A program made the translations under genes and the position numbers. Shown here piece by piece: positions 4,090 through 64,000 of a DNA stretch of 64,000 bases (positions within the stretch are counted from its first letter, which is position 1; each line of letters begins with the position of its first letter). The notes beneath the pieces are model-generated. The model was not told the DNA's origin, made no database searches, and saw nothing but the letters and a program-made list of their open reading frames with translations. The stretch comes from a virus, in the IMG/VR virus record IMGVR_UViG_3300037232_000040; one strand, given 5' to 3'.

Positions 4090-4881
4090 ATGGCAGTGCA
4101 ATGGAACGCAAAATGCACCCGCACTTCGGAGTATCGTTTCTATCCCGAAGACATCAAAATTAAACCTGAACTCAATGGTCGCCACGAACTCCCCGACGTG
4201 GAATGTTTGATCGAAGACATTACTCGCAACGGTCAGATTTCGCCGGTGACGGTACGCAACGATGGCGGAACGCCTGTCCTGGTCGCGGGATTCTCCCGCT
4301 GGCGCGCGGTGAGCGAAATCAACAAGCGCAAGTTGCTTCCCGTCAAGTTACAGATGCGCTGCACTTACGTGCAGTGTTCGGAGATGGAGGGCTTCGTCGC
4401 TAACATCGCAGAGAACCGCTTTCGCAACGGCACTTCCTTGTTGGACGATGCTCACAACATCGCCAAGCTGATTCACAAGTGGAACCTGACGGAGCAGCAG
4501 GTCGCGGCGATCTACTTCCCCGACGCAGCGAAAGACGAGACGGTTGGGAAGGAAGCGCTGCGCTTCGTGAAGAAGCGTTTGGGACTGGCAACGCTGACCC
4601 CGGAAGCAGAGGCAGCTATTTTGAATGGCCGGTTGAAAGAGACCGCTGCGAGCGCTATCGCCAAACTGGACGCGGAGAACCAGCGTGCAGTGATCGCCAA
4701 ATCAAAGGGCGGAGCAGTGAAGGGTAGCACTGTGGCCGCTGCTGGTGACAAGAAGACTCGCCGTTCGATCAAGGAGCAGATCCGCGAAGTCATCGAGAGT
4801 GGTACGTTCAAGCTTGGCAAAGTAGAACATACTGCTGATCAAACCGTGATCGATTGGCTTTCCAGCCTTCTCAGCAGCTAA
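4090..4881 (+). CDS. ParB N-terminal (ParB/Srx nuclease-like) domain protein
   Basis: AAGGAG upstream of ATG 4090. ..NGQISPVTVRNDGGTPVLVAGFSRWRAV.. matches the ParB-box G-x-x-R-x-x-A region. Confidence 0.75.
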   Translation: MAVQWNAKCTRTSEYRFYPEDIKIKPELNGRHELPDVECLIEDITRNGQISPVTVRNDGGTPVLVAGFSRWRAVSEINKRKLLPVKLQMRCTYVQCSEMEGFVANIAENRFRNGTSLLDDAHNIAKLIHKWNLTEQQVAAIYFPDAAKDETVGKEALRFVKKRLGLATLTPEAEAAILNGRLKETAASAIAKLDAENQRAVIAKSKGGAVKGSTVAAAGDKKTRRSIKEQIREVIESGTFKLGKVEHTADQTVIDWLSSLLSS

Positions 4882-38377: not shown

Positions 38378-39967
38378 CTATCTTGTCTTGGCTAAGTACT
38401 CGCCACGTGTAGGACCATGGTGTACCTTTGGCAGTTCTCCCCACTGATGCCCACAAGCATTGCAATGTTGCTGCGCGCCTATACGCACCAAGCACACAGC
38501 AGCGCACTGCGGACAACTGGGAGTGCTGGGCGCAGTCGTGGGTTTTATCGTGGTACTGGTTTGTATGCCGAACTTCTTCTTAGCCATAGTATCCTCTTCA
38601 GGTTTTTGGCCTACGGTGTACTCGCCTTTCATTATTTTGTCCAGCAAGGTAGTAAGCCCGTACAAGCCACCACCTTCGCTTAACTCGGTAAGTGCCCACA
38701 CCAAAGCGTCCATGCGATCAGGACTAGACTGATCTTCTAACTGCGGATCAAAGTCGCACATCTGGTCTTCCAACGCGGCGAACGTGCCCACGTGGTGCAC
38801 GCGGCCCTGCTCGTACAACGCGGCAATGGGCTCTGCCCTAACTACCTTGCCGCGCGTAGCGTGCACAGCCTTAAACGGTATGCCTACGCGCTTGTTTCTA
38901 ACATTATTCTCTACTAGATCACCACCGTTGTTGACCTCACCAATAACGCGGTCGGCACCGGTGCCGTCATAGGTTGCCACTACGCGCTCGGCCCACTTAT
39001 CGGGGCTGGCAGACAAGGTGTTGTCCATTAGCACATAGTAGTGCGGTGGCGTGCGGCTATCACGGCCTGCAGCTACAATGCCCGTTTCGTCGCTGTTTTT
39101 GTTGGCTGTTACGGCAGGGTCAACCCCCACCACTATTCGGTTCAGCGTGCTGGGCAACTGCTCCATGGCTACGCGCAGTTCATCAATACGCTTGCGTGTC
39201 CACAAGGCGTTAGGGTTGTCGTCCAGCAGTTCAGCGTTAAGTTCTTGGCGGCCCAACCTAGTGTTCTCATACTTGGTAATAATCTTAGCTAGGAAGGCAC
39301 CGGCTAGGTTATGTTTGTTGTCGTAGGTACTACCACGAGTAACTACCGTGGTGGGGTCCTTGATAAGTTCCTTGATCAGCTTCACCGGCTTAGGTGTGGT
39401 GGTTACTACAATCTGCGGGTTGCTACCCAAGCGCAAACCGAAACTAGCCTGATCCCAACTTTCATGGTATCGCCACGCAGCCACTTCGTCGCCCCACAAC
39501 TTACTATGCTGCTTACCGCGCAACCGTTCCGGCTCTTCGGCGCTGAACAATAGGCTTACCACACCGTTAGGCCACACTAACCGTGCCTTACTGGGTTGAT
39601 ACAGCGGCCGCTCGCCCTTAGGACAAATAGCCATGATGCCGCTTTCACCCTCGATCATAATATCGCGAACGTCACTGCTAGTAGCACCAATCAGGTTTAC
39701 GGTGCGGTACTCCCCAGTAAGTACCCAGCTACGAATAGTCTCAGCGCCCACACGCGTCTTGCCAAAGCCACGGCCTGCCAACACCAGCCAAGTTACCCAC
39801 ACACCACTAGGCAGTACATTGTTAGCTGGTAGGCGCTGGCTGGGCCGTGCCCAAAAATCCCAGTCGTACACAAGCGCTTCCGCCTGCTCAGTAGTAAGCT
39901 GCGCCATGCGCCGTGCTTGCTCAGCCTTACTAAGCTCCCGAAATTCACCCGCCTTGCTTAATTCCAA
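38378..39967 (-). CDS. terL: terminase large subunit with C-terminal zinc-ribbon extension
   Basis: Walker A LAGRGFGKTRVGAE, Walker B ..LWGDEVAAW.., nuclease ..VVGVDPA... Start is TTG 39967 or ATG 39907. The last ~69 aa contain CPQC..CNAC. Confidence 0.8.
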   Translation of the reverse strand: MELSKAGEFRELSKAEQARRMAQLTTEQAEALVYDWDFWARPSQRLPANNVLPSGVWVTWLVLAGRGFGKTRVGAETIRSWVLTGEYRTVNLIGATSSDVRDIMIEGESGIMAICPKGERPLYQPSKARLVWPNGVVSLLFSAEEPERLRGKQHSKLWGDEVAAWRYHESWDQASFGLRLGSNPQIVVTTTPKPVKLIKELIKDPTTVVTRGSTYDNKHNLAGAFLAKIITKYENTRLGRQELNAELLDDNPNALWTRKRIDELRVAMEQLPSTLNRIVVGVDPAVTANKNSDETGIVAAGRDSRTPPHYYVLMDNTLSASPDKWAERVVATYDGTGADRVIGEVNNGGDLVENNVRNKRVGIPFKAVHATRGKVVRAEPIAALYEQGRVHHVGTFAALEDQMCDFDPQLEDQSSPDRMDALVWALTELSEGGGLYGLTTLLDKIMKGEYTVGQKPEEDTMAKKKFGIQTSTTIKPTTAPSTPSCPQCAAVCLVRIGAQQHCNACGHQWGELPKVHHGPTRGEYLAKTR

Positions 39968-40442
39968 GTTTCCCTGCCAGAATGTCTTTAGCTTCGGCGC
40001 CAGCTGTGTAGTCTATCTTACCGTCTAGGTTAAGACTTTCTGGTAGCTTGCCCTCCGTTACCTCACGAATTTCCTTAGCAGCCGGAGTATCGTGGGTTAC
40101 GGCGCGGTTTAGCATACCAGCGGCCATGGCCTCAGCCCATGTTACGGGGTGGTCGGGGTCAAACCCTAACTGACGGGCCATAGCAGCGGGCACCTTGTTG
40201 CTAAGCATGGTCACGTATGCCTTGCTGATGACCGTTATGTTGCGGCCCTGTATCCCAGTGGGATTACCACTTTGCCCCGGCTTAAAAGTGTATGGGTTGC
40301 CTTTTTTAAAAGGTTGGCCGCGCCCCTCGTATACTTTCCTAGGCACTTCCTCGGTAAGGTCCAACTTAACCACGGCTACTTTCTTCTTACCGTAGGACTT
40401 AATCACTACGTTAGGCTCTTGGCCCGGCTTAGGTTTTCTCAT
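39945..40442 (-). CDS. terS: terminase small subunit-like protein (DUF5681-type motif)
   Basis: ..FKPGQSGNPTG.. motif and position immediately upstream of terL. Confidence 0.5.
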   Translation of the reverse strand: MRKPKPGQEPNVVIKSYGKKKVAVVKLDLTEEVPRKVYEGRGQPFKKGNPYTFKPGQSGNPTGIQGRNITVISKAYVTMLSNKVPAAMARQLGFDPDHPVTWAEAMAAGMLNRAVTHDTPAAKEIREVTEGKLPESLNLDGKIDYTAGAEAKDILAGKLGIKQGG

Positions 40443-40549
40443 TTTTCACGCTCGCAGTATTAAAGTGCCCCAGCTAGACTTACGCAGTAAACCACGCAAT
40501 GGATTTTTGTGAGTACGTGTTCTGCTGCTGCTGAGGCACTAACTTAGGA

Positions 40550-40801
40550 TTACACAGGCACCAGCTGCATTACCCGGTACCCACTGCTGGGACGGCCACA
40601 CCAGCGACGATTGTTACTACCCTGCTCGCACACGGCCCGCAACTGCGCTGTATTACCGGTAGCACGGTGGGTGTCGTTAGTTATAAGCTGCATGGCTTCT
40701 TTCACAGTTACGTGCAGGTGTTCACTGTGGTTAGGCTCTAAGCCGTAATGATCCAGGCGGCCTACCTCACGCTTGCTTAGCAGGCATACACGGTTGCTCA
40801 A
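40550..40801 (-). CDS. hypothetical protein, 83 aa
   Basis: Track ORF. TTG start overlaps the upstream stop (TTGA). No domain recognised. Confidence 0.35.
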   Translation of the reverse strand: MSNRVCLLSKREVGRLDHYGLEPNHSEHLHVTVKEAMQLITNDTHRATGNTAQLRAVCEQGSNNRRWCGRPSSGYRVMQLVPV

Positions 40802-41028
40802 TTGTTGGCCTCTGGGCTGGGCACAGCCGCAAGCATAGCAACAAAATCAGCTAAACTTATGGCATACACCGTGTGTTGGCAACACATGCCTACCACACAT
40901 ACACGGTCGTCAGGCATTAGCAGCAATTGTGGGGACCAATCAGTACGCTCCAGTAAGAACTCAGCTACAAGTTGCGCAGGATCGTGTGTAGGTAGTCTGT
41001 CCATGTGCGCCGCTCTCCTTAATTGCAA
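40798..41028 (-). CDS. hypothetical protein (probable start ATG 41004)
   Basis: Track ORF. AAGGAGAG lies upstream of the internal ATG 41004. Confidence 0.35.
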   Translation of the reverse strand: MQLRRAAHMDRLPTHDPAQLVAEFLLERTDWSPQLLLMPDDRVCVVGMCCQHTVYAISLADFVAMLAAVPSPEANN

Positions 41029-41167
41029 CAGCTTTCAAATGTACGTCGGTAATGCGCAAAGCATCGGTTTTGTTTAGAACGTCCAGGGGTTTAATGCCGC
41101 AGGAACAAACTACTCGCAGGCACCCTTTGTTAGTTGGGTGTTTTTCGTATGTGATAGTGTGCTGCAT
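40961..41167 (-). CDS. hypothetical protein, 68 aa
   Basis: Track ORF with an ATG start. Overlaps the next ORF. Confidence 0.3.
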   Translation of the reverse strand: MQHTITYEKHPTNKGCLRVVCSCGIKPLDVLNKTDALRITDVHLKAVAIKESGAHGQTTYTRSCATCS

Positions 41168-41180
41168 GCACGCGCACCCC

Positions 41181-41351
41181 CTAGTTGCTGAAAAACATAC
41201 TGGCCACTAAACAAGCCAGCCCTGCCGACAACAGACGGTTGCGCCACGGCCAGGGCTCCAGCCAAGTAACAGCGTTAATCGTAAACAGTACAAATGCTGC
41301 TACCAACAAGATAAGGCGAAAAGGCATACCACCACTGTTGTGTTGGTTCAT
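41181..41351 (-). CDS. 56-aa two-helix membrane protein
   Basis: GAGGAA upstream of ATG 41351. MNQHNSGGMPFRLILLVAAFVLFTINAVTWLEPWPWRNRLLSAGLACLVASMFFSN. Below the track cutoff. Confidence 0.35.
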   Translation of the reverse strand: MNQHNSGGMPFRLILLVAAFVLFTINAVTWLEPWPWRNRLLSAGLACLVASMFFSN

Positions 41352-41485
41352 TGTTTAAGGTTCCTCAGTAAATTCAAATTTCAGAAAGTGTGCATAGCAG
41401 CAAGTGCCCCGACGCCCGAAAAAAATCCTATTGCTGCAGAATAGTCAGTGGCATGGTTCGTAGCGCCTACGACACCGAGTGCCTA

Positions 41486-41590
41486 TGTGTTGTGTGTTGT
41501 GTGTTGTGTGTTGTGTGTTGTGTGTTGTGTGTTGTGTGTTGTGTGTTGTGTGTTGTGTGTTGTGTGTTGTGTGTTGTGTGTTGTGTGTTG
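41486..41590. repeat. perfect heptanucleotide microsatellite (TGTGTTG)x15
   Basis: Counted directly: 105 nt, 15 uninterrupted units. Confidence 0.95.
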
Positions 41591-41750
41591 CGACACACTA
41601 ACAACACCCAAGTTGTGTGTTGTAACACCCAAGTTGTGTGTTGTAACAACGAACAACTACGTGTTGCGACACACTAACAACACCCAAGTTGTGTGTTGTA
41701 ACACCCAAGTTGTGTGTTGTAACAACGAACAACTACGTGTTGCGACACAC
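41591..41750. repeat. two perfect 76-nt tandem units plus the start of a third
   Basis: 41591-41666 equals 41667-41742. 41743-41750 repeats CGACACAC. Each unit contains AACACCCAAGTTGTGTGTTGTAAC twice. Confidence 0.95.
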
Positions 41751-41781
41751 GTTCCTCAACAGCCCTGTGTATCACAATGTG

Positions 41782-41805
41782 GTACACATAGTTGTACACA
41801 TAGTT
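41782..41805. repeat. GTACACATAGTT x2 tandem
   Basis: Read directly. Confidence 0.85.
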
Positions 41806-41825
41806 AGACCAGAACGTAGCACGTG

Positions 41826-41918
41826 GCTGCACACTGTGCGGCAGTGCAGCGCCGTGCCCGGTGTGTACGACTATGCACCGGGCTGCATGGTTACCGGCAG
41901 CCGTGCTACAGGCTGCCG
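41826..41918. other. three consecutive GC-rich stem-loops
   Basis: GCTGCAC/GTGCAGC (41826-41850), GCCCGGTG/CACCGGGC (41856-41883), CGGCAGCC/GGCTGCCG (41895-41918). No U-runs on the - strand. Confidence 0.6.
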
Positions 41919-41939
41919 ACACATGCCGCAATGTTCAGG

Positions 41940-42308
41940 TTAGCTTGCCACTTCCTGAATTATAAACGAATCCACATTGTCGGCATCTTGAACAATGTCG
42001 AACGGCGCGCTGGTGTTGGACACAACCGTGTTGTCGGCGAGCGTAAGCGAGATCGTAGCCGTGAACGCTGTACCGTCAATCGGAGGAGCAGGAAGCGTGC
42101 CGGTAGCGATCAAGCCAGTTGAATCGACCGCAAGGTTAAGAATGCCAACCTGGCTCAGAGTCCACGTGGGCACTTGGCCGGGTTGCAGGGTTACTGGGTT
42201 ACCGTTCTTGGTGGGTACCGCGGTGAACACGATCCCCTTGCCGTCGTCCTTAATTTGTAGATCCACGTTGTCCTCAATTCGTTGTGGAAATATCTCGAAC
42301 CCATTCAA
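41940..42308 (-). CDS. Ig-like / beta-sandwich-looking protein, 122 aa
   Basis: Track ORF in the host-like codon dialect. TTG start without an RBS. Beta-strand-rich sequence (..VTLQPGQVPTWTLSQ..TATISLTLADNT..). Confidence 0.4.
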   Translation of the reverse strand: MNGFEIFPQRIEDNVDLQIKDDGKGIVFTAVPTKNGNPVTLQPGQVPTWTLSQVGILNLAVDSTGLIATGTLPAPPIDGTAFTATISLTLADNTVVSNTSAPFDIVQDADNVDSFIIQEVAS

Positions 42309-42326
42309 CGTGGGCCGAACTATCTC

Positions 42327-42355
42327 GGTGTGACCGCGATGCCGTCATAGTTGGC
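42327..42355 (-). repeat. 29-nt exact repeat, copy 2 (copy 1 at 14495-14523)
   Basis: Same orientation as the fibre-gene copy. Here it is non-coding, 18 nt upstream of the 41940..42308 start. Confidence 0.95.
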
Positions 42356-42482
42356 AACCAGCGGACCAAAAATGCAAACCGCTACGGCCAGCGTTAACTA
42401 GTTAGCAAGATACACAACAGCTAGGCACACTTGCAAGCACAAAGAACCGCCTTCGCGCTCTGTGGTGGGTGTGATAATTGTG

Positions 42483-42588
42483 TAAACACCAATGTTTAAG
42501 CACCCGGGAGCCACAAAACCGAGCGCTAAAATATAATGTGTAAACAAATATGTTAATTGCAAAAACCTGCGTAAACATTGGCTGTAAC
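42483..42588. promoter_or_regulatory. three operator-like sites sharing TAAACA half-sites, plus a TATAAT box
   Basis: TAAACAccaaTGTTTA (42483-42498), TAAACAaataTGTTAA (42541-42556), a weaker GTAAACA..TGTAAC (42571-42588). TATAAT at 42532-42537. Confidence 0.35.
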
Positions 42589-42590
42589 CA

Positions 42591-42646
42591 TCTCTATTTA
42601 ACACATTAACACATTAACATATATATATATATGTATGTAATAGAGA
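42591..42646. other. AT-rich core flanked by an 8-bp inverted repeat (possible unwinding element)
   Basis: TCTCTATT (42591-42598) and AATAGAGA (42639-42646) flank ATTAACAC repeats and (AT)7 at 42619-42632. Confidence 0.3.
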
Positions 42647-42817
42647 GGGACACTAAGGATAATACTATAGATTGAGATACCTAAGAGTTTTGCCCCTGCT
42701 AATTGGTTACTGTTAATTTTTCAAACAGCAGCTAAACACAAGCAAACAAAACACTTATGCAATTAACACACTTTAGATTGCTTAGGCCTGTGCGGCTGTG
42801 CTAGCCTAGCTTAGCGC

Positions 42818-43234
42818 TTGCACTCACAGTACTTAGTTTTATGTGGTGCTGCCCGCCGCCACAAACTAGTTCTCGAAAGGACACAAAAAGCATTGTCTCA
42901 ACAAGAATGCACACTGCTAATACACATACCCACAGACTTGCTGTTGGCCCTAGATGCCGCTGTACAACGTGCCATGTGCCTGCACCTGCAGCAGCCTGTA
43001 CACAAACCTATAAAGGTAATAAACACACAGCAGGAGATAAACCAAGCCCTGTTATGGCTAAGGGCTGGCAGCCGCACCACTAGTGAAGTAAACATATGGC
43101 TACGCTTAAAGGCCCGCGAACGTGCTACCAACAGCGGTATACCACGCGTTAACCGCCAGCCCAGCCGCACCAGCGTAGCACTGCAAATGTTGCGTACGGC
43201 GCTAAAACAAGACGAAGCGCAGCATGGCGCATAA
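42818..43234 (+). CDS. possible ribbon-helix-helix-type regulator, start uncertain
   Basis: Track ORF (TTG). ..ECTLLIHIPTDLLLALDAAVQRA.. resembles an RHH beta-strand/helix motif. First + strand ORF after the control gap. Confidence 0.3.
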   Translation: MHSQYLVLCGAARRHKLVLERTQKALSQQECTLLIHIPTDLLLALDAAVQRAMCLHLQQPVHKPIKVINTQQEINQALLWLRAGSRTTSEVNIWLRLKARERATNSGIPRVNRQPSRTSVALQMLRTALKQDEAQHGA

Positions 43235-43448
43235 CTACACAACTGCTACCGCCGTGTGCCAACATTGCCAAGTAGAGCTGTACAAGGTTGCCGTACCTTT
43301 GTTGCAGGGCTATTGGCGTGACTTGCAGGGCGGCCGCTACTGTGCCCGGCCGGCCAACCAGTACAAGCTGCATGTACCCACGCCGTTAAGCGTAAAGGAA
43401 ATTGCCACAGCGCCCACACACACATCACCAAATAAGTTTGCCAAATAG
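43224..43448 (+). CDS. hypothetical protein, 74 aa
   Basis: ATG 43224 overlaps the upstream 3' end. CQHC plus a distal Cys. Confidence 0.35.
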   Translation: MAHNYTTATAVCQHCQVELYKVAVPLLQGYWRDLQGGRYCARPANQYKLHVPTPLSVKEIATAPTHTSPNKFAK

Positions 43449-43471
43449 GCACGACAAAGGGAACATACACC

Positions 43472-45574
43472 ATGGAGGTATTAAGTGCTACCGTGGGTAA
43501 GCCGCACAGCGTATTTGCAACTATTAAACAGGTAGAGCAGGCTATGCTAGAGAAGCTACATGCTAGCGCACTCAGCAGCCAAGACGCCCACCTGTTGCAG
43601 TACACACCTTTAACCAGCCAACAAGTGGCCACTGCCCACGCCACGTTGCCCGCACACCGGGCTGGGTTTGTGATTCCGTACTTTAGTATAAACGGCAAGC
43701 CTAGTAAGTTTTACCGATTTAGGTACTTGGAGTATGGCCACGACAGTGGGTTTGCTCGGCTAGTGGCTGCGCAGTTAAAACAGTTGCGCTACGGGCAGAC
43801 CGTAGGCACCATGAATGAGTTGTATCTGCCACCCTACATAGACTGGGCTGCGTACAGCAAGGATGCCAGCAAGCCGGTGCTAATTACCGAAGGGGAATTA
43901 AAGGCTGCCTGCAGCACTAAGCACGGTGTGCCCTGCATAGGTTTGGGTGGAGTGTGGTGCTTTAAGGCCGGTGCCAGTGGTGTACATTTGTTGCCACAGT
44001 TTGCCGAATTTACTTGGAAGGATCGTGTGGTGTACATAGTGTACGATAGCGACGCGGCCAGCAACCACCAAGTTGTAAAAGCTGAGAATGCGCTGGCCCG
44101 CGAGCTGTGTAATCTGGGCGCAGTACCAGCTGTAGTGCGTTTGCCCGCGCTACAGGCCGGTAGCAAGACTGGGCTGGACGACTACATTGTGGCCCTTGGT
44201 ACGGACAAATTAATGGAAGCACTATTGCTGCCAGCTGAGCCATGGCTGCGGGCAGCGGAGTTGCATCAGCTGAATGAGGAGGTGATTTACGTAGAAGAAC
44301 CCGGCCTAATACTTAAGCTGGCTAACCTGCAACGCATGGCACCCCGTGCTTTTACTGACCACGCCTACAGCACGCGCATATATCACGAGAACCAGGTTAC
44401 GGCTACAACTACAAAGATGGTGGAGAAGAGCGCCGCTAAGGAGTGGCTTAAGTGGCCCGCGCGCGCCACTGTGCACAAGGTAACGTACGCACCGGGGCAG
44501 CCTCGTGTAACTGCCAGCGGGGAGTTAAATGTGTGGAAAGGTTGGGCCGTGCAGCCTGCAGCGGGCATTGTAGCGCCATGGACGCAACTGCTGGATTACT
44601 TGTTTGTCGGGGCTAAGTCCGATGATCGCACATGGTTTGAGCAATGGCTAGCTTATCCGCTGCAGTACCCTGGTGAGAAGTTGTACAGTTGCTGCGTATT
44701 GTGGGGCAACCACCACGGCACTGGCAAAAGCGCTATAGGCTACACCATGTTTAAGATATATGGTGATAACAGCACGGAAATAGGGGACCGCGATTTGTAC
44801 AGCACCCATAATGAGTGGGCTGAGAACAAACAATTTGTCATGGGGGATGAGATAACCAGTGGCGGCGAGAACAAACGTAGTAGTGCTGACCGCATGAAGA
44901 GCATGATAACACAACGTTTGTTGCGGCTAAACCCCAAGTATATTAGTAGCTACACCGTGCCCGATTGCTTGAACTACTACTTTACCAGTAATCATCCGGA
45001 CAGTTTTTTTATTGATGACAATGATCGCCGTTATTTTGTACACGAGGTTAAGGGGCAGCCGCAGCCCCGTAGTTTTTACATTAGTTATTTTGATTGGTTG
45101 GCGCAGAATGGCGCAGCGGCGCTGTTTTATTACCTGCTTAACCTGGACATGACAGGTTTTGATCCGGCTGGCAAAGCCCCGAGTACTAGCAGCAAGTTGG
45201 ACATGATAGATAGTGGCCGTAGTGACTGCGCTAGCTGGGTAGCCATGCTAAAGGAAGAACCCGACCGTGTGTTGCAGGTGGGTGGTAAGCCGCTACACTA
45301 CCAACTATGGACTACCACGGAGCTGCATGGTATCTACGACCCACAACGCGAAACCAGGGTAACGGCCAATGGGTTGGCTAGAGAATTAAGACGTGCCGGG
45401 TTGTGTAAAGTGTTCGATGGGCAAGGTGTACCTACTACCTTGGGAGGCCGCCAGCGTTTGTGGGCCATACGCAATGCCGATAAGTTACTGCCGTTGGATA
45501 GTGGTAAGTTGGGCAAGATATACGATCAAGAAAGAGAGGCCGGTGGTGCAAGAAAAAGACAAACCAAATTCTAA
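43472..45574 (+). CDS. bifunctional primase-helicase (Toprim domain plus D5/P4-type NTPase)
   Basis: ..VLITEGELKAA.. and ..IVYDSDAASN.. (Toprim E and DxD). Walker A GNHHGTGKSAIG, Walker B ..FVMGDEI... Confidence 0.8.
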   Translation: MEVLSATVGKPHSVFATIKQVEQAMLEKLHASALSSQDAHLLQYTPLTSQQVATAHATLPAHRAGFVIPYFSINGKPSKFYRFRYLEYGHDSGFARLVAAQLKQLRYGQTVGTMNELYLPPYIDWAAYSKDASKPVLITEGELKAACSTKHGVPCIGLGGVWCFKAGASGVHLLPQFAEFTWKDRVVYIVYDSDAASNHQVVKAENALARELCNLGAVPAVVRLPALQAGSKTGLDDYIVALGTDKLMEALLLPAEPWLRAAELHQLNEEVIYVEEPGLILKLANLQRMAPRAFTDHAYSTRIYHENQVTATTTKMVEKSAAKEWLKWPARATVHKVTYAPGQPRVTASGELNVWKGWAVQPAAGIVAPWTQLLDYLFVGAKSDDRTWFEQWLAYPLQYPGEKLYSCCVLWGNHHGTGKSAIGYTMFKIYGDNSTEIGDRDLYSTHNEWAENKQFVMGDEITSGGENKRSSADRMKSMITQRLLRLNPKYISSYTVPDCLNYYFTSNHPDSFFIDDNDRRYFVHEVKGQPQPRSFYISYFDWLAQNGAAALFYYLLNLDMTGFDPAGKAPSTSSKLDMIDSGRSDCASWVAMLKEEPDRVLQVGGKPLHYQLWTTTELHGIYDPQRETRVTANGLARELRRAGLCKVFDGQGVPTTLGGRQRLWAIRNADKLLPLDSGKLGKIYDQEREAGGARKRQTKF

Positions 45575-47432: not shown

Positions 47433-48223
47433 CATTCTTTGACCGCAAAGCAGTTGTCTACAAGCTGACCGATGCCAACTCCCAGACCTACGACAAAACT
47501 CAATGGGGCGAAGGCGTGACCCACAGGACAAACGGAACCGATGAGCTGTGCGGGCCGGGATGGTTACATGCTTATACCCATCCGTTGCTTGCGGTTTTCC
47601 TCAATCCGATACATGCGAATTTTGTCAATCCGATTTTGTGGGAAGCGGAGGCCGACGGGAAAACTCTTTCCGATAAAGGACTAAAAGTCGGCTACTCCGA
47701 GATCACCACAATACGCCAAATCCCGTTACCCGTTGTAACCACTTTCCATCGAATCCGCTTTGCTATACTTTGCGCCCAATCCGTGTATAAAAACTCGGAT
47801 TGGCTTGCTTGGGCCGACAACTGGCTATCCGGTAAGGACCGCTCGGCGGAGGCGGCGGCGGCGGCGGAGGCGGAGGCGCGGGCGGCGTGGGCGGCGGAGG
47901 CGCGGGCGGCGTGGGCGGCGAAGTGGGCACCGGGGGCGGCGTGGGCGGAGGCGCGGGCGGCGTGGGCGGCGAAGTGGGCACCGGGGGCGGCGTGGGCGGA
48001 GGCGCGGGCGGCGTGGGCGGCGAAGTGGGCACCGGGGGCGGCGGCGTGGGCGGCGTGGGCGGCGGGGGCGAAGTGGGCGGCGGAGGCGGCGGGGGCGGCG
48101 GCGCGGGCGGCGGAGTGGGCGGCGGAGGCGGATATAGACCTTATCGCAATCGCACAGCAGGTCGGCGAATTCGATACTGACGTTCCGAAGGTCATTTGCG
48201 ACAATTTTGCTGGCAGATATTGA
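47423..48223 (+). CDS. DUF7666-like N-domain protein with an Ala/Trp tandem-repeat region
   Basis: ATG 47423 is in frame with track ORF 47330..48223. ..YKLTDANSQTYDKTQWGEG...LCGPGWLHAYTHPL.. fits the DUF7666 pattern as remembered, followed by AAWAEARAAWAAKWAPG repeats. Confidence 0.55.
   Translation: MKPTFFDRKAVVYKLTDANSQTYDKTQWGEGVTHRTNGTDELCGPGWLHAYTHPLLAVFLNPIHANFVNPILWEAEADGKTLSDKGLKVGYSEITTIRQIPLPVVTTFHRIRFAILCAQSVYKNSDWLAWADNWLSGKDRSAEAAAAAEAEARAAWAAEARAAWAAKWAPGAAWAEARAAWAAKWAPGAAWAEARAAWAAKWAPGAAAWAAWAAGAKWAAEAAGAAARAAEWAAEADIDLIAIAQQVGEFDTDVPKVICDNFAGRY
47845..48130 (+). repeat. GC-rich tandem repeat, 51-nt period (perfect units 47936-47986 and 47987-48037) with degenerate flanks
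   Basis: Read directly. It generates long spurious ORFs in several other frames on both strands. Confidence 0.85.
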
Positions 48224-54581: not shown

Positions 54582-55575
54582 GGCCGCAACGCCAAAAGCG
54601 GAGAAGGTCGCACCATCAACCTACCTCGCAAAGCTGAAGCAAGAAAGGATTGATCTCGATAATGAGTGCGAAGCCTTAGACCAACGGATCAGCGATATGG
54701 ACGATAAGCGGAAGCTGTTGTTGCGGCGAAAGCAACTTATCGCGAAAATCAACGAAGAGCAGACCTACCTCGCAAAGCTGAAGCAAGAAAGGATTGATCT
54801 CGATAATGAGTGCGAAGCCTTAGACCAACGGATCAGCGATACGGACGATGAGTGGAAGCCGCTGTCAGACAAAAAGGCGTTGCTGAACTTGCGGCGGAAG
54901 CAACTTATCGCGAAAATCAACGAAGAGCAGAAAATCATTAGTTATGAAGAGCAATGGGTAAAAACTCCGCGCACCGAACCTAAAAACAAGATCATTATCG
55001 ACTCCTATAAAAATAAGTGGGACTACCAGCGTGAGTACTTTATGAAAGCTCTGGAACCCGCGCGAGATGCTTGGCTAGATCACGCCAATGAAATTTGCAA
55101 GACGGGTGAGCTGTGGGATTTCGAGGAACTCGCGAAGGCGGTTGTCTGGAATGAGTGCAATGAGAAGTTCCGACCGGAGGAATTTCCCAACGAGTTTATC
55201 CGCATCGAAGTTCCCGGCGCTGGCAAGTATTTAATCAAGAACACGGCCGCCGCAATTTACAAGATTCTAAAATCCGCGCCCACTGCATTCTCGAAACCCA
55301 AGTGCAACCAGCATCCCGAGGGATATCACAAAATCCTGGGCGAGAACGCCAAACAGGGGCGCCCCAACCCAGAACTCAACCCTGAGAAGCTAATCTTGTT
55401 CCATGAGAAGCAGATCGCAGAACTTCGTGACAAGCGCAAGAAACTAACAGACGCAAAGGACGCCTCCTTCAATATAGACGCAAAGGACGTCTTCAATATA
55501 GACGAACAGATCAAGCAAGGCGAGAGCGACTTACGAGAAGCTCGCAATCTCAAAGGAGGATTCAAGTGCGTATAA
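54553..55575 (+). CDS. coiled-coil protein with an internal 48-aa duplication
   Basis: AAGGGGA upstream of GTG 54553, in frame with track ORF 54502..55575. TYLAKLKQERIDLDNECEALDQRISD occurs twice. Confidence 0.5.
   Translation: MRITKETAAKAATPKAEKVAPSTYLAKLKQERIDLDNECEALDQRISDMDDKRKLLLRRKQLIAKINEEQTYLAKLKQERIDLDNECEALDQRISDTDDEWKPLSDKKALLNLRRKQLIAKINEEQKIISYEEQWVKTPRTEPKNKIIIDSYKNKWDYQREYFMKALEPARDAWLDHANEICKTGELWDFEELAKAVVWNECNEKFRPEEFPNEFIRIEVPGAGKYLIKNTAAAIYKILKSAPTAFSKPKCNQHPEGYHKILGENAKQGRPNPELNPEKLILFHEKQIAELRDKRKKLTDAKDASFNIDAKDVFNIDEQIKQGESDLREARNLKGGFKCV
54619..54930 (+). repeat. tandem duplication, 144-nt period (second copy carries a ~24-nt insertion)
   Basis: 54619-54697 is identical to 54763-54841. 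Confidence 0.85.
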
Positions 55576-63842: not shown

Positions 63843-63874
63843 GCTTGGTTGGTGCGGTTAAGGAGAAAGCAGAA

Positions 63875-64000
63875 ATGGCAACTAAAACTTGGATTACCGA
63901 CGCAAACAATAACCGCTGCTCCATTGATTATTGGGGGTCGCGTGAAGCGGCACAGAAGGCGCTTGATAGCCTCAAAAACTGCTCCGACTGCTCCGACTGC
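63875..64000 (+). CDS. second Cys-triplet repeat protein, 3'-truncated by the window edge
   Basis: AAGGAG upstream of ATG 63875. The first 110 nt are identical to 2221-2330. It then continues CSDCSDC... Confidence 0.6.
   Translation, partial: MATKTWITDANNNRCSIDYWGSREAAQKALDSLKNCSDCSDC

Follow-up and report, generated by a model that had tools for sequence, protein, structure and literature searches.

Between the packaging and replication genes of an uncultured peat-soil phage lies a 0.6-kb non-coding block of nested perfect tandem repeats, and the question raised by this locus is what such DNA may be doing there. The block (hereafter the tract) occupies positions 41352-41939 of the 64,000-nt stretch of DNA analyzed here (the window; IMG/VR record IMGVR_UViG_3300037232_000040). 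Our preferred reading, which we put forward tentatively, is that the tract is a slippage-expanded accessory array of putative protein-binding half-sites (TGTGTTG), which would act at the DNA level and not as an origin. The tract was read directly and with Tandem Repeats Finder. From left to right, it comprises:

41352-41485: unique left spacer, between the start of open reading frame (ORF) 56 (ORF56; 41351, - strand) and the heptamer run
41486-41590, + strand: (TGTGTTG)x15 microsatellite (period 7, 15.0 copies, 100% matches)
41585-41750, + strand: 76-nt tandem repeat (2.2 copies, 100% matches)
41603-41648 and 41679-41724: 21-nt sub-repeat AACACCCAAGTTGTGTGTTGT inside each 76-nt unit (2.2 copies, 100% matches)
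41782-41805, + strand: direct repeat of two GTACACATAGTT copies (100% matches)
41826-41850, 41858-41881, and 41895-41918, + strand: three GC-rich hairpins

Two complete 76-nt units (41591-41666 and 41667-41742) are followed by the initial 8 nt of a third, CGACACAC being found at 41591, 41667, and 41743. Each unit contains the 24-mer AACACCCAAGTTGTGTGTTGTAAC twice (starts at 41603, 41624, 41679, and 41700), as an earlier inspection of the letters alone (the sequence-only reading) had reported, but with a start-to-start spacing of 21 nt instead of 22 nt. The 21-nt sub-repeat has the form CAACAC-N9-GTGTTG, i.e., the heptamer core as an inverted pair, and the near-palindrome GTGTTGCGACACAC is present at the borders of the 76-nt units (41585, 41661, and 41737). 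Folded as single-stranded DNA, the stretch of 76-nt units has a z-score of -3.9. A run of 15 perfect heptamers far exceeds chance expectation; elsewhere in the window, TGTGTTG occurs in 8 copies on the + strand and 4 on the - strand, for ~4 expected per strand. Perfect identity among the repeat copies, together with the nesting of the units, is the signature of recent tandem duplication, and we consider the tract to be very young.

To score coding potential, we relied on the codon usage of 13 long genes in the window, which served for training (mean 0.32 bits per codon, standard deviation [sd] 0.10). Over the tract this score is negative in six of six frames (-0.10 to -0.77 bits per codon), compared to 0.35 for the terS gene and 0.36 for the neighboring ORF122. 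The tract thus codes for no protein, and the ORFs across it are artefacts of the repeats, in agreement with the sequence-only reading; the latter's description of gene-free hierarchical repeat DNA, unusual for a phage, stands almost to the base, including the 15 heptamers, the two perfect 76-nt units, the doubled 12-mer, and the three stem-loops. The scans found no tRNA or tmRNA, and a CRISPR array was ruled out, the repeat units being contiguous or nested and devoid of unique spacers. The left spacer holds the GAGGA ribosome-binding site of ORF56 and, on the - strand, a weak hairpin with a T7 run behind it (A7 on the + strand, at about 41421-41427). Within 41352-41485, the scans called neither promoter-like nor terminator-like sites, and the nearest terminator-like calls, both on the - strand, are at 41229-41199 and 41752-41735 (the latter inside the repeat). 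Scans of the window for sigma-70 promoters and intrinsic terminators gave counts at shuffle level, and none of the hits bracket the tract.

Identical primase, ORF56, and ORF122 proteins are encoded on many peat-metagenome contigs, which are 99.7-100% identical to the window. The metagenomes in which the phage occurs are JGI 3300036882, 3300037206, 3300037083, 3300048759, 3300048820, 3300033822, 3300037064, 3300037199, 3300036876, 3300048770, and 3300037084, and ENA ERZ27254049 and ERZ27254068. Alleles of the tract could be resolved in 13 peat metagenome assemblies of the same phage:

15 heptamers: 9 samples, plus the window (modal allele)
16 heptamers: JGI 3300036876
14 heptamers: JGI 3300048770
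11 heptamers: ENA ERZ27254049
10 heptamers, with a single 76-nt unit: JGI 3300037084

The heptamer polymorphism for which the sequence-only reading had proposed a search is thus present (10, 11, 14, 15, or 16 copies), and the 76-nt unit is found once or twice. Across the 3.1 kb from 40400 to 43500, the only other differences are single nucleotide polymorphisms (SNPs) at 40532, 42568, and 42590 and a (TA)5/6/7 run at 42619. The tract therefore evolves by slippage much faster than its flanks evolve by substitution, and one allele is nonetheless dominant. The tract also causes breaks or gaps in short-read assemblies: N-gaps interrupt the heptamer run of three scaffolds, and many contigs carrying the flanking genes are shorter than 2 kb. 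By our own reasoning, 105 nt is the length of a minimal graph traversal for k = 99, which could make the 15-copy allele an assembly artefact; we rejected this possibility, as 105 nt is below the final k (127 or 141) and hence spanned. Because, in addition, the alleles with 10, 11, 14, and 16 copies (70, 77, 98, and 112 nt) match no default k collapse length, the copy-number variation is real, absolute counts being provisional as they come from assemblies.

The tract has no counterpart that we could find outside this lineage. There is no DNA similarity to GenBank phages, a 24-mer of the 76-nt unit is absent from IMG/VR (no DNA-level relative outside the lineage), and no relative with protein identity of 80% or less carries the tract, which sequence comparisons thus indicate to be private to one species-level phage lineage. 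Relatives at the protein level are mosaic: those sharing the terL gene (46-65% identity) mostly have different replication genes, and those sharing the primase (45-58% identity) mostly have different terminases. The repeats that travel with each module can therefore be told apart.

On the replication side, this comparison singles out another element of the window, ~0.85 kb to the right of the tract:

42598-42672, + strand: origin-like element, made of TTAACACA x2.8, (TA)6 (with 5-7 copies depending on the sample), and an inverted arm, in that order

Of all 60-bp duplexes in the 64 kb, the one with the lowest stability starts at 42613, directly after the 8-mers (dG -62.4, for a window mean of -87.1 with sd 5.4 and a runner-up at -70.3). 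An array of about three ~8-nt units lies at most 1.2 kb upstream of the primase in 11 of the 20 loci (the window, L023, L045-L049, L051, L056, L057, and L062), compared to 0.055 arrays per 1.2 kb elsewhere. The 40 nt that follow the array are 68-88% A+T in 10 of these 11 loci (50% in L056), and inverted 8-mer copies occur beyond the AT-rich part. The 8-mers themselves differ, with TTACTCTA, TTACACTA, TTTACACT, TTTACACA, TTTACTAC, and ATTACATA among the relatives. In all 10 tested relatives carrying the element, the locus-wide melting minimum is located at the element or within 150 nt of it. Because the array travels with the primase and coincides with the melting minimum, we regard 42598-42672, and not the tract, as the candidate origin of the family, or at least as its putative main melting or control element.

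Origins next to pri-rep genes are built from an AT-rich region with flanking sets of iterons (PMC6092414). The iteron and AT-rich origins of phage-inducible chromosomal islands, such as those of Staphylococcus aureus pathogenicity islands, resemble 42598-42672, where the least stable duplex is flanked by short sites in tandem and inverted arrangement, upstream of a primase/helicase gene (PMC6092414). This architecture belongs to 42598-42672, whereas the tract has no adjacent AT-rich unwinding region. The tract is more than 860 nt away from the least stable duplex (42613); within 150 nt of the tract, the best 60-bp stretch has a z-score of 2.3, and 23 regions elsewhere are less stable. An iteron-type origin, one of the roles suggested by the sequence-only reading, is therefore not what the tract represents: it has no directly flanking AT-rich unwinding element, is off the melting minimum, and is absent at that position in relatives, the conserved element being the one at 42598-42672. 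The tract is at most an accessory site cluster of the origin. As for the (TA)n run of the origin-like element (42619-42630), two of the three junction SNPs (42568 and 42590) adjoin it and one assembly breaks at 42442-42584; changes in its length could possibly alter promoter spacing or origin melting.

The genes around the two repeat elements are as follows:

38378-39967, - strand: terL (Terminase_6N/6C)
39945-40442, - strand: DUF5681 protein in terS position, overlapping terL (an alternative candidate binder of the tract)
41940-42317, - strand: ORF122, a 5'-truncated copy of a 154-163-aa gene
43472-45574, + strand: primase/helicase, with a DUF3854 Toprim-like domain and a DUF5906 SF3/D5-like helicase

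Four small ORFs on the - strand fill 40550-41351, and the cumulative GC skew reaches its minimum at 40-44 kb, where gene orientation switches. The tract thus lies at the junction of divergent packaging and replication modules, and not deep in a packed operon. It had been placed inside the late operon by the sequence-only reading; this is imprecise, as about 1.5-1.9 kb at this place, counting a doubtful ORF at 42818-43234, form a gene-poor mosaic without any intact, confidently coding gene. The right neighbor, which had been taken for the first late gene, is in fact ORF122. Homologues of ORF122 (94, 80, 80, and 66% identity) have ~40 extra N-terminal residues, and immediately upstream of the TTG start, the conserved "EIVRPT" has an in-frame stop before it. 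Its nucleotide homology is limited to 42317-41946; as it starts and stops at the gene borders, the repeat element has a mosaic breakpoint at its right edge. The 80% homologues (L080 and L082) are located among glycosyltransferase and epimerase genes. ORF122 therefore did not lead to the array in any intermediate relatives: its homologues have a different context, and the coding segment is all that they have in common with it. Further genes of the phage code for a family-A DNA polymerase, a PD-(D/E)XK nuclease, a SNF2 helicase, and an ERF recombinase, and no integrase was detected among the ORFs scanned; judged by its gene content, it looks virulent and self-replicating.

Under our preferred reading, nested tandem duplication (7 nt, 21 nt, and 76 nt) would have built the hierarchy of repeats and replication slippage the allelic series of heptamer counts, the resulting array serving to titrate, loop with, or hand over a protein that acts at the control region 42598-42672. 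Protein binding to the tract, the identity of the binder, and the effect of binding are what we infer. The half-sites are suggested by one further feature:

40872-40886: palindrome TGTGTTG-G-CAACACA, a head-to-head heptamer pair within the small ORFs that lie upstream of terS

This palindrome is unique in the window, lies 600 nt to the left of the tract, and by our own calculation would be expected to match exactly ~2 x 10^-4 times in 64 kb. A perfect palindrome of the heptamer suggests a predicted half-site for a dimer; together with the inverted pairs of the 21-nt units and the near-palindromes at unit borders, it points to a dimer half-site layout beyond what slippage alone would give. In addition, the reverse complement of TTAACACA is TGTGTTAA, so that both the heptamer and the 8-mers contain TGTGTT, in opposite orientations. 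The ten other units (8-mers or 10-mers) found in relatives have no 6-mer in common with the heptamer, and we estimate the probability of such sharing by chance at ~0.03. Moreover, contiguous 7-bp repeats are an established target of protein binding, as the heptads of pSM19035 parS show (PMC9499535), which is a further point in favor of such an array.

The likeliest binder would be the primase/helicase, through a winged-helix-like domain at its C-terminus. Its C-terminal ~100 aa are modelled as helix-helix-helix-beta-beta (predicted local distance difference test score [pLDDT] ~90, fragment residues 70-170), and the top PDB matches of this model are nearly all winged-helix DNA binders, including Cdc6/Orc1 on origin DNA. 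Initiators combining a primase and an SF3 helicase, such as P4 alpha and pRN1 ORF904, have a C-terminal winged-helix DNA-binding domain (PMC2777425). The modelled layout of the primase/helicase agrees with this primase-SF3 helicase-winged helix order, without proving it.

Accessory iteron clusters are among the closest known parallels to such an array. In P4, crr is adjacent to ori; among plasmids, P1 incA and F incC are examples of inc iterons forming accessory clusters. That separate crr and ori exist in P4 is documented (PMC9942202, PMC6092414). Like these clusters, the tract is a second group of short sites off the unwinding element, with higher-order direct repeats that each contain several cores, and has a primase-SF3 helicase gene nearby, products of this type having a C-terminal winged helix (PMC2777425). 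Unlike them, it shares only a 6-nt core with the 8-mers, includes a contiguous 15-copy microsatellite, and is absent from relatives.

Several observations weigh against an accessory array of half-sites. Beyond the 6-nt core, the alignment score between the tract and the origin-like region is 17, for a background of 16.7 +/- 2.6 in random genome windows, and descent of the 21-nt or 76-nt unit from the origin-like region was rejected for this reason. The winged-helix matches are weak (best Foldseek E = 0.15). Among other possible binders, no match to ribbon-helix-helix (RHH) or ParA families was obtained in the ~40 window ORFs scanned, of 54 predicted genes. A doubtful ORF beside the 8-mers (42818/42893-43234) has an RHH-like motif; it was discarded as an RHH protein given its lack of any family match or of homologues beyond this phage, its low coding score (-0.05), and its unusable model (pLDDT 48.5). 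Truncated ORF122 separates the tract from the origin-like element. In addition, no relative has a comparable second array in the 20 primase loci, making the tract dispensable for the family. Finally, perfect copies may simply mean that there has been too little time for a signature of selection, and neutrality is compatible with them.

Neutrality is also the core of the alternative that we consider a serious one, although rather unlikely: a functionless micro- or minisatellite, expanded by slippage in a tolerated, recombination-scarred spacer and drifting in length as a variable number of tandem repeats (VNTR). The youth of the tract, deduced from its perfect copies, its restriction to one species-level lineage, and its right edge at a mosaic breakpoint beside a truncated gene all agree with this scenario, as does a copy number that drifts stepwise around a mode. 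Moreover, (TGTGTTG)4-12 tracts occur sporadically in 13 unrelated viral IMG/VR contigs (L092-L104), including giant-virus metagenome-assembled genomes, none of which has proteins in common with this phage, and other length-variable repeats exist in the same genome. On the other hand, slippage alone would not be expected to yield the heptamer palindrome 600 nt away, the inverted pair of the 21-nt unit, or the core shared with the 8-mers; phage genomes rarely tolerate 0.6 kb of useless DNA, and 15 copies are kept in 9 of 13 samples. Variation in copy number also brings to mind bacterial simple-sequence contingency loci and VNTRs, in which perfect short tandem repeats show stepwise alleles in natural populations, and a contingency tract had been envisaged in the sequence-only reading; as a phase-variation switch, heptamer number would set expression of the downstream packaging operon. 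The polymorphism is real in nature, but the tract, unlike such loci, is neither in an ORF nor between recognizable -35 and -10 elements, 7-nt steps follow no frame logic here, and the 15-copy allele is strongly modal; the (TA)5-7 run at 42619 is a better candidate for spacing variation. We thus judge a switch at the tract to be very improbable. An RNA element, also suggested before, appears just as improbable, whether as a + strand antisense transcript (three hairpins and a GU-rich repeat) or as a C/A-rich - strand leader modulating read-through or translation of late genes. The hairpin block, which is identical in all available copies and has no diverged homologues, is indeed more stable than shuffled sequences on the + strand only (z = -3.94 with 0 of 200 shuffles as stable and two G-U pairs, versus -1.76 on the - strand), and the - strand repeat RNA is G-free. 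However, the whole element is not unusually stable on the - strand (z = -1.74), Rfam gave no match at gathering score and only two chance-level matches at E <= 1, and no promoter or terminator brackets the tract. In addition, (CAACACA)n contains no YC dinucleotides and should, by our own reasoning, load Rho poorly, on which ground a strong rut (Rho-loading) role was rejected.

Other proteins than the primase/helicase could be involved. In one unlikely scenario, the tract would be a packaging-module element of a class travelling with the terL family: either a pac-type recognition array for terS, or a region to which terS or a late regulator binds to control the late packaging operon. The tract is indeed upstream of, and co-oriented with, ORF56, three more small ORFs, terS, and terL. 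In the terL family, despite unrelated replication genes, tandem arrays are about twice as frequent in the 3.5 kb upstream of terL as downstream (0.26 versus 0.13 per kb, p = 0.01), and in one subclade, described below, they are conserved in sequence and position and lie off melting minima, as does the tract. Yet about half of the terL relatives have no such upstream array, and those found show no sequence relation to the tract. The pac site of P1 contains hexamer repeats. As with the pac boxes of SPP1, sets of direct repeats are found here upstream of terminase genes (PMC4737164). However, SPP1 pac spans promoters and the start of the terS gene (PMC4737164), and characterized pac sites are at or within terS, whereas here 1044 nt and four small ORFs lie between the terS start and the left end of the tract. 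The pac/cos array of the sequence-only reading thus has the recurrence of arrays upstream of terL in its favor and the position of the tract, 1.04 kb from the gene, against it. Contigs wrap through the region without consistent ends and are uninformative on termini. Another protein that might load on the tract is encoded 27 kb away from the heptamer palindrome and the tract:

4090-4881, + strand: ParB/Noc-family protein, with a CTPase-type N-domain and HTH_ParB (E = 2e-5; matches to PDB ParB/Noc structures at 5e-6)

We regard as improbable that the tract is a loading or operator array for this ParB/Noc-like CTPase-HTH protein, or for an unrecognized RHH protein, spreading or polymerizing as in omega-parS or KorB-type systems. 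In its favor, the ParB/Noc-family protein is genuine and the window has no canonical parS (none within 3 mismatches). At 15 bp, the palindrome is close in size to a parS site (16 bp). MetJ uses repeats with a 7-8-bp spacing. The RHH protein omega likewise uses sites repeated every 7-8 bp (PMC9499535). In pSM19035, parS consists of 7-10 contiguous heptads WATCACW, each bound by one omega dimer, and RHH-ParB sites have at least 4 contiguous 7-bp repeats (PMC9499535); the tract has 15, with units in both orientations nearby, and, read on the other strand, CAACACA agrees with WATCACW at 5 of 7 positions. Unlike omega arrays, it comes with no detected RHH or ParA protein (no ParA among the ORFs scanned), overlaps no known promoter, and belongs to a virulent-looking phage instead of a plasmid. 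Nor does comparison with relatives support such an array.

The arrays found upstream of terL in other phages deserve a description of their own. Arrays of 21-25-nt units are present in L009 (945-1029), L014 (532-599), and the Desulfofustis phage OP947159 (L078; 48-131 and 876-1130). These three genomes, whose terL proteins are 80-85% identical to each other, have arrays with a common core, CTCTACnTAGACGGT, 2-3.3 kb upstream of terL; those of the Desulfofustis phage are followed by a sigma-factor gene and terS. The record of this phage could not be used to define genome ends, as its terminal identity is a 127-nt assembler overlap. In L002, L005, L006, and L027, ~760-830 nt upstream of terL, 25-nt units enclose (GAGTGGTA)x5; a long palindrome centered on TTTTAAAA comes next, and inverted copies after it. 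This array fills the gap between an AAA_25 helicase gene and terS; it is thus hierarchical and at the same junction as the tract, with an unrelated sequence. The 10-mer GTGTGTTGCG is common to both, but as it is about the longest substring expected by chance (own estimate), it was dropped.

Repeats are also found at other places in the window. At 47844-48131, G-rich 51-nt tandem units are located inside a + strand gene, the product of which is 195, 209, 232, 249, or 266 aa long in strain contigs (195 and 209 at contig ends), and which looks like a coding VNTR. A segment of ~147 nt is repeated 61,654 nt apart (2200-2346 and 63855-64000) with 83-96% identity and unrelated preceding sequences. 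Each of the two leads into an array of (ACTGCTCCG)n, with 24 copies at 2324-2539; translated in the corresponding frame, such arrays would give Thr-Ala-Pro repeats. A circular wrap of the window was discarded, since its end matches 2200-2346 and the rest fails at that offset, as expected from an internal repeat. BLAST self-hits further revealed a 97-nt direct repeat (54619-54715 and 54763-54859, 96.9% identity, 144 nt apart). Finally, GTGTTG is in excess on the + strand (43 versus 15), which might have suggested that the core acts in a polar, Chi-like manner; the excess comes from codon use, namely Asn-Thr in genes on the - strand and Val-Leu in those on the + strand.

Nothing found here requires a new kind of system; tandem site arrays and VNTRs in phage control regions are a known kind. 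There is a slight chance that the accessory array goes further and is tunable by its copy number, as a protein sink or loop partner for the 42.6-kb origin/operator or as a ParB-like clamp loading platform, the alleles (10-16 heptads, 1-2 units) setting the timing from replication to packaging; if true, this would be a population-level "rheostat" made of DNA repeats and not of a gene. More generally, if the tract is a functional site cluster, it would exemplify the recent natural birth of an iteron- or operator-like array by slippage from a single half-site, and its wild allelic series would be at hand for dosage effects on the control of phage replication or packaging. Whatever its function, it provides a strain-level VNTR marker for this peat phage. 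What may matter more than the tract is the neighboring element: about three tandem 8-mers beside the least stable duplex are a candidate origin mark for uncultured phages with a DUF3854/DUF5906 primase-helicase.

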